Assembly: GCA_032161105.1 (NCBI GenBank)
Contig: JAVHTD010000003.1
From: Candidatus Thermosaccharophagus tengchongensis
GTDB lineage: Bacteria > Armatimonadota > Fervidibacteria > Fervidibacterales > Thermosaccharophagaceae
DNA: 64,000 bases
Direction: 5' to 3' (one strand)
This document shows positions 24,313-44,604 of the stretch, one piece after another. The notes below the pieces were generated by a model. That model was not told the origin of the DNA and made no database searches. It saw only the letters and a program-made list of their open reading frames with translations. How positions within the stretch are numbered: position 1 is the first letter of the stretch; every line of letters begins with the position of its first letter. The translations under genes were made by a program, and so were the position numbers.

Positions 24313-26262
24313 ATGGAAAACGAGCATGGCGGTTATTTCATCATCGGCACCGCAGGGCATGTTGACCACGGCAAGACCGAACTCATAAAGGCTTTGACGG
24401 GCTTAGACACGGATAGGCTGCCTGAGGAAAAAATGCGCGGCATGTCCATTGACCTCGGGTTTGCGTATTTCAAACTCCCAGATGGAAGGGTTGTGGGCAT
24501 AGTTGATGTCCCCGGGCATGAACGCTTCGTCCATAACATGCTTGCTGGGGCTGCCGGGATGGATTTGGTTCTCATGGTGATCGCCGCCGATGAAGGTGTC
24601 ATGGCGCAGACGGTTGAGCACTTAAACATTTTGCAATTGCTCAATGTGCGTGAGGGCATCATCGTCATCACGAAGCGTGACTTGGTTGACGATGAATGGC
24701 TGCAGCTTGTCATTGAGGATGTGCGTGAGCGCTTTAAAGGGACATTCCTTGACGGCGCCCCAATCGTCGCAGTTTCATCCGTGACTGGCGAGGGTTTAAG
24801 TGAGCTCGTGCAGCTTATCCAGCGCAAGGCAATGGAGGTCAAACCGAGGAAGGAAGTGGAGCGCCCGTTCAGACTGCCGATTGATAGGGCGTTTATCAGG
24901 GCTGGCTTTGGCGTGATCGTCACTGGGACTGCATTCTCCGGCGAGGTGAGCGTTGGACAGGAGGTTGAGATATCGCCCATCGGCGTTCGCACGCGCATTC
25001 GCAGCATGCAAGTCCACAAACAAAGTGTTGAGAGGGCATTCGCCGGGCAGCGTGTGGCAATGAACTTGGCTGGAATTGAGAGGGAAAGCATTGAGCGCGG
25101 TTATGTCGTAACTGAGGTCGGCTACATGCCACCAACTAACAGGATAGCCGTCCATGTGCGCCTCCTGCCAAGCGCAAAGAAACCGCTCAGAGATGGAGCA
25201 CCAGTGCGCCTTCACATTGGCACTGGAGAGTGGGTCGCAAGGCTGCTATTGCTCTCGGGAAATGAGCTTGCACCTGGAGAGGATGCATTTGCCGAGTTGC
25301 GCGCCGATGAATATCTCGCCTGTGTGCGCTACGACCGCTTCGTCATACGCTCATACTCGCCGATTGAGACAATAGGTGGCGGCATCGTCATTGAGCCATA
25401 TCCGCCAAAGCTCCGCAGGCGATCGCAACGCTACATTGAAAGTTGCAAGCGAAAGTCAACAGGCGACTACGAAGCTGCAGCTGAGATGCTGCTTGAAGAG
25501 CACGCAAACGGCTTAAGTGTGAGAGAGCTCTCCGTGCTGCTCCACATGAAACTGCAGCACACAGCCGACTTGCTCAACATGCTGTGCAAGCGTGGCAGCG
25601 CAATCAGACTCGGTGACGACCTCTGCATCTCGGCAACCACTTACAAGGTTGCAAAGGATGAAGTGCTCTCACTTTTGCGCTCATATCATCAAGAGCACCC
25701 GCTGCACATGGGAATGAGGAAGAGCGTGCTGTTTGGGCAGGTTAGCAGCATTAGCAATGAAGCCACACTTGAGCTATTGCTGCTGCGTCTTCAAGAGGAA
25801 AACGAAATAGCGGTTGAGCGTGAGCTTGTGCGGCTGCGCTCGCATTCGCCCTCACTCAGTGGACGATACTTGGAGATAGCCAACAGCATGCTCAAAATTT
25901 GCTCCGAAGCCGGCTTTGCCCCGCCATCAACTGCGGAACTGATGCGACATTTTGCGGGCATGCAAAGGGAGGCATCCGAAGTGCTTCATGCGCTGCTTGA
26001 GAGCGAACAATTGTTGCTCGTTGATGAGTTTGTCTTCCACCCGCACACCATAGAGCGCGCAAAACAACTGATCAGCGAGCACATAGAGAAACACGGAAGG
26101 ATAACCGTCGCCGAATTCAGGGACATGGCTGGCATCACGAGGAAGTATGCAACGCCAATACTTGAGCACCTTGACCGAGTGGGCTTTACGCAGCGCCTCG
26201 GCGATTACCGAATATTGCGCTCCAAGGCTCACAAGGCACAACAGCAAACTGCCAAACCATGA
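24313..26262 (+). CDS. selB: Selenocysteine-specific translation elongation factor
   Basis: GTAGHVDHGKT, GMSIDLGFA, DVPGHERF; C-terminal winged helix ITRKYATPILEHLD. Confidence 0.96.
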   Translation: MENEHGGYFIIGTAGHVDHGKTELIKALTGLDTDRLPEEKMRGMSIDLGFAYFKLPDGRVVGIVDVPGHERFVHNMLAGAAGMDLVLMVIAADEGVMAQTVEHLNILQLLNVREGIIVITKRDLVDDEWLQLVIEDVRERFKGTFLDGAPIVAVSSVTGEGLSELVQLIQRKAMEVKPRKEVERPFRLPIDRAFIRAGFGVIVTGTAFSGEVSVGQEVEISPIGVRTRIRSMQVHKQSVERAFAGQRVAMNLAGIERESIERGYVVTEVGYMPPTNRIAVHVRLLPSAKKPLRDGAPVRLHIGTGEWVARLLLLSGNELAPGEDAFAELRADEYLACVRYDRFVIRSYSPIETIGGGIVIEPYPPKLRRRSQRYIESCKRKSTGDYEAAAEMLLEEHANGLSVRELSVLLHMKLQHTADLLNMLCKRGSAIRLGDDLCISATTYKVAKDEVLSLLRSYHQEHPLHMGMRKSVLFGQVSSISNEATLELLLLRLQEENEIAVERELVRLRSHSPSLSGRYLEIANSMLKICSEAGFAPPSTAELMRHFAGMQREASEVLHALLESEQLLLVDEFVFHPHTIERAKQLISEHIEKHGRITVAEFRDMAGITRKYATPILEHLDRVGFTQRLGDYRILRSKAHKAQQQTAKP

Positions 26263-42801: not shown

Positions 42802-43006
42802 GTGCGTGGGAGCCATCATGTGAGGGCAGCCGCGCGAAAAAGCGCCCAAGAAATCGGATGGATTTTTTATCCGCCTGAGGTTTGGCAACTTTTGCACAGT
42901 CCATGCGGTCGGAAATGCCTGCAACACCCGTAGCGCTATAAATCCGATTTGCGCTGTGAGTTGGCTCACGCTCAAGCCGCAAGATGTGGTTATGGGGGTG
43001 AGCAGT

Positions 43007-43489
43007 ATGCCGACAGTGCTCGTCATCTACTACAGCCGGACTGGTAACACTCAGGCGATGGCTGAGGCAGTTGCCGAGGGCGCAAAAAGCGTGCCCGGCG
43101 TCAAAGTTGAACTTAAGCGTGTTGAGGAATGCACTGTTGAAGACCTGCTTAATGCTGATGGGATAATCATTGGCTCACCAACTTACTACGGATTGCCGGC
43201 AAGCGAAATAAAGCGCCTGTTTGATGAGAGCGTCCGCTATCATGGGCAGCTTGAGGGCAAAGTCGGAGGGGCATTTTCCTCATCGGCTAATGTCGGTGGT
43301 GGCAACGAGACAGCCATACTGGGCATTTTGCAGATGATGCTCATTCACGGCATGATTGTTCAAGGTGCCGTGCAAGGCGATCATTACGGGCCGGTGAGCG
43401 TCGGTTATCCAGATGCGCGCTCAAAATCACAGTGCTTTGCCCTGGGTGAACGAGTTGCGAAGCTCGTGCTCAAGTTGCACGGTGAATAA
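43007..43489 (+). CDS. WrbA-like flavodoxin / NAD(P)H:quinone oxidoreductase
   Basis: YYSRTGNT..MAEAVAEG, GSPTYYG, GKVGGAFSS, GGGNET. Confidence 0.88.
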   Translation: MPTVLVIYYSRTGNTQAMAEAVAEGAKSVPGVKVELKRVEECTVEDLLNADGIIIGSPTYYGLPASEIKRLFDESVRYHGQLEGKVGGAFSSSANVGGGNETAILGILQMMLIHGMIVQGAVQGDHYGPVSVGYPDARSKSQCFALGERVAKLVLKLHGE

Positions 43490-43513
43490 GCCTTAAGCTG
43501 CATTGATGACCTC

Positions 43514-44059
43514 TTGGGTGACAAATGGATGCGCTATATCGGAGCGGCAATTGGGTCGGCATCAATTGTTGTTGCGAGCGTAATAGTTGGGCTTGCAGTG
43601 AACGCTATTCGCCCGGATGGCATACCGCTGCGCTACAGCGAACTTGAAAGGTTGCTCAGGACGCGCGAGAACCAGCCATGGCTTGAGCGTCTCCCAAAGG
43701 GTGTTGAGGTGATTGAGTTTAAGCGTGCATGGATGCTTTTCATCTCCCGCCGCGCAATATTTGTTGATGCGCGCCCAGCCAGCGATTATGTGAAGGGTCA
43801 CATACCTGATGCTATCAATTTGCCAGCTGCAGAAAAGGAGTTTGAGGCTTCATTTAAAGCTGCGAAGGGCAAGCTCCCAAAGGATGCAAACATTGTCGTA
43901 TATTGTGCCGGCGGCTCATGACCACATAGCGTATCGGTCGCGGAGCGGCTGGCAAAGCTGGGTTACAAAAAGTTGCTCGTGATGCCCGGCGGATGGGGTG
44001 AGTGGGTCTCGCACAAATGCCCAATTGAGCGGTCGGAGAAAAGCAAAGGGACCAAATGA
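43514..44059 (+). CDS. Membrane-anchored rhodanese-domain selenoprotein (Sec at TGA 43919-43921)
   Basis: FVDARP..Y..GHIP.AIN, then VYCAGGS-TGA-PHSVSVAERLAKLGYKKLLVMPGGWGEW completes the fold; hairpin downstream; selB in window. Confidence 0.85.
43922..43963 (+). other. Putative bacterial SECIS element
   Basis: Upper stem CGGTCGC/GCGGCTG (43935-43951) with GGA loop 20 nt after UGA; lower pairing TAGC/GCTG. Confidence 0.65.
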
Positions 44060-44085: not shown

Positions 44086-44604
44086 ATGGTGCGTTGGCGT
44101 TGGTGGAAAGTGATGTGCTTCATCTTGCGCATTGGGTTGGGCGGCATATTCGTCTTTGCGAGCCTGGGAAAGATAGTTGATGACCCGCTGATCTTCGTTA
44201 GCGTGGTTGAGAGTTACAAAGTGCTCCCAAAGGCTCTTATCCCGCTCTTTTCCGTTGTGCTGCCTTGGGTTGAATTCATCGCCGGCACCCTGCTCATAAT
44301 TGGCTATGCTGTGGAGAGCGCTGCAGCGGTCATAGCATTGATGCTCGTTGCATTCATCTTCGGCATCGTCATAAATCTGTTTCGCGGTGTTGAGATGGCG
44401 TGTGGCTGTTTTGGGTTCATTGAAGGGGGTGATAAAATCGGCTGGTATACCGTGGTGAGAGATCTCGCCATGCTCCTCAGCGCTGTGTTGCTGGTGTTCG
44501 CCAATGTCCCGTTTGCTTCGCTTGAGAGTGCCTTCTCAAAGATGCGCCAACGGGACAACAAAGGCGAGGTGATGTGCAATGCGGATGAGCGAGCGAATGA
44601 ATAG
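44086..44604 (+). CDS. MauE/DoxX family membrane protein
   Basis: LRIGLGGIF..ASLGKI, LPWVEF, CGCFG, RDL. Confidence 0.85.
   Translation: MVRWRWWKVMCFILRIGLGGIFVFASLGKIVDDPLIFVSVVESYKVLPKALIPLFSVVLPWVEFIAGTLLIIGYAVESAAAVIALMLVAFIFGIVINLFRGVEMACGCFGFIEGGDKIGWYTVVRDLAMLLSAVLLVFANVPFASLESAFSKMRQRDNKGEVMCNADERANE

Follow-up and report, generated by a model that had tools for sequence, protein, structure and literature searches.

We describe here a gene on a 64,000-nucleotide stretch of DNA from Candidatus Thermosaccharophagus tengchongensis (GenBank contig JAVHTD010000003.1; this whole stretch is referred to as the window) that very probably is an intact gene for a real selenoprotein. The gene occupies positions 43514-44059 on the + strand and, when read through an in-frame UGA codon, it is complete and specifies a membrane-anchored, rhodanese-like protein of 181 residues, hereafter Sec-rhodanese, in which residue 136 is predicted to be selenocysteine (Sec). 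This assignment comes from comparison of sequences, in particular with orthologues that carry the same in-frame TGA in the other three species-level genomes of the genus. The overall explanation that we favour, with moderate confidence, is that the Sec136 rhodanese passes through a selenenylsulfide cycle and takes part in an extracytoplasmic relay with MauE, a membrane protein encoded directly downstream.

The window is contig C3 of the metagenome-assembled genome G000, which is the genome under study (2.74 Mb in 44 contigs, 97.4% complete). The other three genomes of the genus are referred to as G001-G003.

The reading frame across the in-frame UGA

Under translation table 11 the open reading frame at 43514-43921 (+) ends ...IVVYCAGGS and is closed by the TGA at 43919-43921. 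Beyond this codon the same frame remains open for 45 sense codons (PHSVSVAERLAKLGYKKLLVMPGGWGEW...) and stops at TGA 44057-44059. Both features had been pointed out in an earlier note on this DNA, which described a frame that halts at VYCAGGS-TGA and then runs on for 45 codons, and both were reproduced. In the read-through product, residues 81-166 (43754-44011, +) match the Pfam Rhodanese domain (PF00581) at 66.2 bits against a cut-off of 22.2, and the match spans the TGA. The product of 135 residues that would result from termination is without the final helix-strand-helix of the domain, and the first ATG or GTG past the TGA lies at LVMPGG, only 25 codons before the end. The start codon is TTG 43514, with ATG 43529 as a possible alternative; the earlier start is favoured because a K-W pair encoded 5' of the ATG is kept in two orthologues.

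Each of the three congeners has an orthologue (78, 62 and 57% identity) with exactly one in-frame TGA. All four genomes of the genus place this TGA in one and the same column, within the motif Y-C-[AGS]-G-G-S-U-P-[HN]-S, and upstream of it the synonymous sites differ by 47-76% among these genomes. In codon alignments the ratio of nonsynonymous to synonymous substitution rates (dN/dS) for the 35 codons past the TGA is 0.09-0.22 in five of the six genome pairs, the sixth being saturated at synonymous sites, and upstream of the TGA it is 0.12-0.28. The low dN/dS past the TGA therefore argues that the tail is translated and under selection. Furthermore, the stretch was found in hot-spring metagenome runs from at least eight studies, and contigs from three DNA runs, belonging to three independent studies, span the gene and show 8-10 differences across 1.3 kb, never at the TGA or in the hairpin described below. 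Neither TGC nor TGG, which the earlier note had named as readings that would undo its proposal, appears at this codon in these contigs.

We then asked what stands opposite the UGA in more distant proteins. A HMMER scan of 1.84 billion representatives returned 10,451 matches, of which the best 150 were used; 97 of these exceed 260 residues and were left out because they are multi-domain rhodaneses, leaving 53 short representatives. Within this set (drawn from the best 150 of the 10,451 matches) Cys occupies both the C131 and the U136 columns in 52 proteins, the consensus is Y-C-x-G-x-x-C-x-x-S, and the remaining protein, P0012, ends just before the U column. An alignment of 51 sequences was also built from the query, its three orthologues, 44 of the representatives and three Cys homologues from other Armatimonadota genomes. 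When Cys and Sec are paired, this alignment has only six invariant columns, the U column among them, and conservation of the canonical rhodanese Cys131 is 90% or more (one member, L019, has Gly there). No Trp or other non-Cys residue was seen at the U column among the 53 short representatives or in the 51-sequence alignment. The earlier note had expected Cys opposite the TGA and had placed Sec at the second Cys position of the rhodanese loop; both expectations agree with these alignments, in which the U136 column is the invariant second Cys of a C-x4-C family.

The exceptional member L019 (G048:C79:247696-248166) is a MauE-linked protein in which the canonical Cys is absent (Y-G-D-G-Q-P-C) and the second Cys is retained. 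Because the first Cys has been lost and the second kept, the sequence of this loop suggests that the second position is the essential one. Searches with an alignment of the four orthologues did not widen the orthologue set: a profile search of the genome contigs returned the three congeners only, and a search of metagenome contigs gave no closer orthologue, the best match being 42% identical.

A SECIS-like hairpin (SECIS, selenocysteine insertion sequence) lies at 43934-43952 (+), with an 8-bp stem formed by a 5' arm at 43934-43941 and a 3' arm at 43945-43952 and an apical GGA loop at 43942-43944. The stem starts 12 nt and the loop 20 nt past the UGA, which bears out the G-leading stem-loop at 20 nt reported in the earlier note. 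Bacterial SECIS elements are said (Zhang and Gladyshev in 2005) to place their apical loop 16-37 nt past the UGA. The element at 43934-43952 has the form expected of them, namely a stem-loop just 3' of the UGA with a G in the apical loop. Across the four orthologues all 32 base-pair cells are paired and the GGA loop is invariant. The changes in the stem comprise one two-sided change (C-G to U-A) and three one-sided changes (G-U or U-G to Watson-Crick), and the double change corresponds to a synonymous Val change coupled with an Arg-to-Gln change. When the 3' arm was slid by 1-3 columns as a control, only 19-53% of the cells were paired. The genome also provides an internal control, as the UGA of selD in G000 is followed at the same distance by a 7-bp hairpin with a GGU loop. 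A search of Rfam around the UGA gave no family, the sole match being a meaningless long non-coding RNA at E = 2.5.

The genome also encodes much of the apparatus for Sec insertion. The gene for the Sec-specific elongation factor, selB, lies in the window itself at 24313-26262 (+), where the earlier note had put it, and is identified by TIGR00475 at 413.9 bits against a cut-off of 242.25. A tRNA-Sec was found in G000 (75.9 bits; anticodon tca by ARAGORN), and both the tRNA-Sec and selB are present in all three congeners. The selD gene of G000 lies on the - strand of contig C5 (G000:C5:91187-92119; L009/L014) and is itself a selenoprotein gene, with an in-frame UGA in an ...SGU... motif and a GGU-triloop hairpin. 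A reassignment of the genetic code (tables 4 and 25) was considered and rejected: of the 818 open frames in G000 with 400 codons or more, 471 end in TGA, and therefore no genome-wide reassignment has taken place.

The consequences for annotation are visible in the public protein records. Five of them, P0002-P0006 (66-99% identical), all end ...GGS, and P0012 (59% identity) ends ...GGT, just as the earlier note had anticipated in saying that pipelines would call the gene truncated. One cut-off record is an NCBI entry with the name merely 'rhodanese-like domain-containing protein'. The Sec-rhodanese gene and its relatives are thus stored in databases as fragments of 124-165 residues. Because C-x4-U rhodaneses are cut at the UGA in this way, selenoproteins are undercounted in uncultured bacteria, those of hot springs included.

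The predicted protein and its MauE neighbour

AlphaFold2 was run on the 51-sequence alignment and gave a model with a mean predicted local distance difference test score (pLDDT) of 91.7, in which an N-terminal helix (residues 2-32) is followed by a rhodanese fold. The top Foldseek matches of the model are rhodanese structures, including 6mxv, 3nhv and 1gmx. The active-site region is modelled as a strand (126-130), a loop (131-136) and a helix (137-148), and contains the sequence C131-A-G-G-S-U136-P-H-S139, encoded at 43904-43930 (+) with Cys131 as TGT at 43904-43906. In this model Cys131 takes the canonical post-strand position, and Sec136 closes the six-residue loop where the active-site helix begins. 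The loop is without the usual basic residue of CxxGxR[ST].

The most hydrophobic window of 19 residues (mean Kyte-Doolittle value 2.32) spans approximately residues 11-29 (43544-43600, +), within the modelled helix, and is predicted to be a transmembrane signal-anchor. A positive-inside test on 46 family members with a transmembrane segment found more Lys and Arg in the N-terminal flank in 29, fewer in 5 and equal numbers in 12. Taken with the N-terminal helix of the model, these counts indicate that the N-terminus is most likely inside and the domain outside the cytoplasmic membrane. The earlier description of the enzyme as exported and membrane-anchored is plausible, given helix 2-32 of the model and the flank charges (29 against 5 of 46).

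All four genus genomes have the same gene order: TIM-barrel, WrbA-like flavoprotein, Sec-rhodanese, MauE, TIM-barrel. The MauE/DoxX membrane protein, which is the proposed redox partner, is encoded at 44086-44604 (+), 27 nt downstream of the rhodanese gene, and matches PF07291 at 87.5 bits against a cut-off of 27. It carries the sequence C106-G-C108-F-G (44401-44415), and the CGCF motif is invariant in all six aligned MauE sequences. The WrbA-like flavoprotein resembles NAD(P)H:quinone oxidoreductases and is encoded at 42956-43489 (+), 24 nt upstream of the Sec-rhodanese gene and directly upstream of it throughout the genus. It matches Pfam FMN_red and Flavodoxin_1, and NCBIfam NF002999 at 99.8 bits, below the cut-off of 141. 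This gene may belong to the same operon as the Sec-rhodanese gene, and its product may act as a quinone link for the rhodanese-MauE pair.

The linkage to MauE was surveyed with profiles from alignments A4 and A5 over 87 loci containing 117 rhodanese domains. Twelve of these domains are followed within 205 nt by a MauE gene of the same strand, and all 12 match the family profile with E <= 2e-33. They are those of the window, the three congeners and loci L019, L020, L024 and L042-L046, and linkage is found at 12 of 12 family loci; it persists in L019 despite the loss of the first Cys. The other 48 C-x4-C domains have E >= 8e-29 and showed no MauE in the DNA surveyed, where many contigs are short, and none was seen beside the 57 domains without a C-x4-C motif. 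Because so many of these contigs are short, the absence of MauE at the unlinked domains is weak evidence. We define the family operationally by an N-terminal transmembrane anchor, a Y-C-x4-[C/U]-x2-S loop and an immediately following MauE gene, and Sec-rhodanese has all three features.

MauE proteins have been studied in a 2026 preprint (10.64898/2026.03.05.709764). They are reported there to replace DsbB in E. coli, their CXC motif, which is usually followed by F-G and is predicted to be periplasmic, is found by mutagenesis to be required, and quinone binding is described as likely. The CGCF of the window MauE agrees with the active site given in the preprint. MauE is a DsbB-like enzyme and is probably linked to quinones. 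Because of this, the rhodanese-MauE pair would form an extracytoplasmic thiol/selenol relay.

In the mechanism that we propose, SelB and Sec-tRNA(Sec) would decode the UGA at 43919-43921, guided by the hairpin at 43934-43952, to give a product of 181 residues with a membrane anchor and a rhodanese-fold domain facing outside. Sec136 would replace the second, invariant Cys of the C-x4-C-x2-S family, five residues past Cys131, and the two residues would cycle between a thiol/selenol and a selenenylsulfide form. The Cys131/Sec136 pair would exchange redox equivalents with the C-G-C of MauE at the outer face of the membrane, and through MauE the quinone pool would serve as electron sink or source. 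The WrbA-like quinone reductase, if it is co-expressed, would fit reductive flow or quinone maintenance.

The separate parts of this proposal are held with different confidence. Gene order points to Sec-rhodanese as a redox partner of MauE, a role to which we give slightly less than an even chance. The wider proposal, that the membrane-anchored C-x4-C/U rhodaneses are dedicated extracytoplasmic partners of MauE that carry a disulfide or selenenylsulfide on a rhodanese rather than a thioredoxin fold, is more tentative. The arrangement is like that of DsbB-DsbA and MauE-MauD in that a membrane enzyme with a periplasmic Cys pair is encoded beside a small exported protein with two chalcogens. It is unlike them in that the partner has a rhodanese and not a thioredoxin fold, in that its motif is C-x4-U and not CxxC, and in that the partnership is proposed from gene order only.

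Sec is nearly always found at the catalytic redox residue of an enzyme. The position of Sec136 suggests that in the widespread C-x4-C rhodanese-like loop the reactive residue is the second Cys, and offers a clue to an uncharacterised class of domains. If the relay proposal is true, the natural Cys-to-Sec swap in this genus marks the second loop residue, and not the canonical Cys, as the reactive centre. The rhodanese-MauE pair would then be a third kind of bacterial envelope relay, oxidative or reductive, beside DsbB-DsbA and VKOR-Trx, and would occur in many phyla. The MauE linkage and the replacement of DsbB by MauE together yield a testable hypothesis, namely that MauE has a rhodanese-fold partner; with the position of the Sec, the linkage gives a handle on a widespread and uncharacterised rhodanese-MauE pair.

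Weighing other explanations

The in-frame TGA could in principle mark a pseudogene, or a sequencing or assembly error that turned a Cys codon into TGA. TGT and TGC are each one base away from it, and annotation pipelines do read a stop here. The comparative data refute this explanation, and we regard its probability as negligible: the TGA is shared by four species-level genomes and by the contigs of three further studies, dN/dS is as low past it as before it, and no start codon would make the downstream part a useful separate gene. It is also conceivable that the UGA mostly terminates translation, or is read by a near-cognate tRNA (Trp or Cys), giving a 135-residue fragment or a protein without Sec in a genome where selA is truly absent. 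Several results do weigh against our own reading of the gene. The earlier note had looked to selA, selC and selD elsewhere in the genome, and of these the tRNA-Sec and selD were found, in addition to selB, but selA was not detected in G000 (97.4% complete) by TIGR00474, by PF03841 or by tblastn with the congener SelA. It was also not found in the congener G001, so that it is missing from two of the four genus genomes, each 96-97% complete, and the archaeal-type SepSecS and PSTK were not found in G000 either. As for the hairpin, the 72 nt past the UGA alone fold no better than shuffled sequences (z = 0.64), and 94 of 500 column shuffles of the four sequences reach the observed covariation score; with only four sequences the covariation is suggestive and not significant. 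A contig from the RNA run X17 covers 43481-43726 at a depth of 2.2, which leaves the UGA outside, and possibly reflects DNA carry-over. Against termination or near-cognate reading, however, G000 keeps selB, tRNA-Sec and a UGA-bearing selD, and the congeners keep selB and tRNA-Sec, all of which would serve no purpose if Sec were not made. The hairpin has been kept at the distance expected of a SECIS, and homologues have Cys, not Trp, in the UGA column. Furthermore, selA is present in G002 and G003, where it sits on contigs of 10,063 nt (G002:C62, L123) and 3,355 nt (G003:C21, L122), consistent with a region that assembles poorly. The neighbour gene of selA in G002 maps to C5:3503-4465 in G000, and selA is not beside it there. 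Given that the tRNA-Sec is present and that two congeners have selA on short contigs, the absence of selA from G000 is more likely to reflect a gap in assembly or binning than a true loss, and we consider termination or near-cognate reading very improbable.

A different question is what a genuine selenoprotein of this kind would do. Sec-rhodanese might be a classical transferase of sulfane sulfur (or selenium), in which Cys131/Sec136 would take up a persulfide or selenosulfide from extracellular thiosulfate, polysulfide or selenium species, with MauE and the WrbA-like flavoprotein providing a link to the quinone pool; its purpose would then be sulfur or selenium detoxification or respiration and not protein disulfide exchange. 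The fold and the nearest structures are those of sulfurtransferases such as GlpE, PRF, TSTD1 and Sud, reduced sulfur is common in the hot-spring habitat, and a gene for a WrbA-like quinone reductase stands immediately upstream in each genome of the genus. In M. tuberculosis, a DoxX membrane protein works with the rhodanese SseA. Nevertheless, the absence of the CxxGxR[ST] basic residue from the loop does not fit a transferase, and the invariant residue is the second Cys/Sec rather than the catalytic Cys of the canonical position, where L019 has Gly. A loop with two Cys residues suggests instead a dithiol/disulfide cycle, and the WrbA-like gene was not seen beside the pair in the open reading frame lists of L020 and L024. 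The transferase explanation is the main rival to the relay, and on balance we think it less likely than not. Two points from the MauE preprint do tell against the relay with MauE that we prefer: the available part of the text (10.64898/2026.03.05.709764) makes no mention of rhodanese, and the MauE proteins described in it functioned with E. coli DsbA and with no rhodanese partner.

Known rhodanese selenoproteins and related loops

Rhodanese selenoproteins are already known, and Sec-rhodanese is below the cut-offs of both NCBIfam models for them, TsoB (NF045694) and rhodanese_LYCAU (NF041203). TsoB reportedly comes originally from Haft and Tolstoy in 2025. Five forms of rhodanese selenoprotein are tabulated in a 2026 review (PMC13188914): form 1 with UxxS (WP_010941598.1), forms 2 and 4 with UxxG, form 3 with CxU (NF041203) and form 5 with UxxxxU (TsoB, NF045694). 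A UxU variant of form 3, the LYCAU family, is also on record (PMC1976440). The expressions CxxxxU, CX4U and CXXXXC rhodanese are found in no selenoprotein paper of the literature that was searched.

The closest parallel in spacing is TsoB, which has the x4 interval in common with Sec-rhodanese and places a Sec five residues past the first active-site chalcogen, its positions being taken from the motif string in that review and not from an alignment. Each of the two proteins also has a link to a thiol-redox protein of the membrane. Among NCBIfam models TsoB ranks second for Sec-rhodanese, at 48.7 bits against a cut-off of 805, and the match covers only profile positions 46-162 of 572. Unlike TsoB, Sec-rhodanese has a single Sec (C-x4-U) in a protein of 181 residues with neither a fused DsbD-like domain nor a Tso operon, and its membrane partner is encoded by a separate MauE gene. 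The best NCBIfam match is rhodanese_LYCAU, at 55.7 bits against a cut-off of 115, which is likewise a single-domain rhodanese selenoprotein; its Sec, however, lies two residues past the Cys whereas that of Sec-rhodanese lies five past. Forms 2 and 4 differ in motif. The U136-P-H-S139 sequence does fit the UxxS of form 1, on a comparison of motif strings only, and Sec-rhodanese is possibly a new member of that form; the part of the review that was consulted mentions no membrane anchor or MauE link for it. Among Cys-only proteins, B. halodurans BH2092 (PDB 3nhv and 3o3w) is alike in its fold and in its C-x4-C loop (YCWGPAC), and HMMER aligns its two Cys residues with C131 and U136. C-x4-C proteins such as this one are soluble, come from structural genomics and have 22-24% identity to Sec-rhodanese.

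Two-TGA loops related to form 3 were also encountered. In L021 (G052:C254) and L027 (G024:C207), from other Armatimonadota, two in-frame TGAs occur in an F-Y-U-T-U-R loop, which is the UxU variant of the CxU (LYCAU) family. Against NF041203, L021 scores 72.1 bits, below the cut-off of 115.

A motif scan of 80 loci found the C-x4-U-x2-S loop followed by a hairpin in seven rhodanese domains from six unrelated metagenome loci. These domains are found in secreted single-domain proteins, in a tandem pair and in three K+-channel-like fusions; all score below the NCBIfam cut-offs, and three of the four tested have TsoB as their best match. The fusions (L082:2249-3661, L097:309-1646 and L057) join a C-x4-U-x2-S rhodanese, with its hairpin, to a K+-channel-like domain (Pfam Ion_trans_2, GYGD filter), and they may represent selenoprotein ion channels whose rhodanese head senses redox state. 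At L084:2306-3220, a secreted protein carries two or more rhodanese domains in tandem, and each of them has its own C-G-G-x-T-U-K-L-S loop, in-frame TGA and hairpin.

The secreted single-domain rhodaneses with the motif F-Y-C-R-G-x-x-U-G-L-S form a large family (L059:2230-2670, L061:971-1390 and P0161-P0211). Most of its database matches (50 of 58) have 86-99 residues, corresponding to just the first 51-65% of the query, and are apparently cut at the UGA. Multi-domain proteins were also seen: P0008 (2,327 amino acids) contains 16 rhodanese-domain matches, mostly C-x4-C, and P0009, P0010 and P0013 are among proteins with 8-10 rhodanese repeats.

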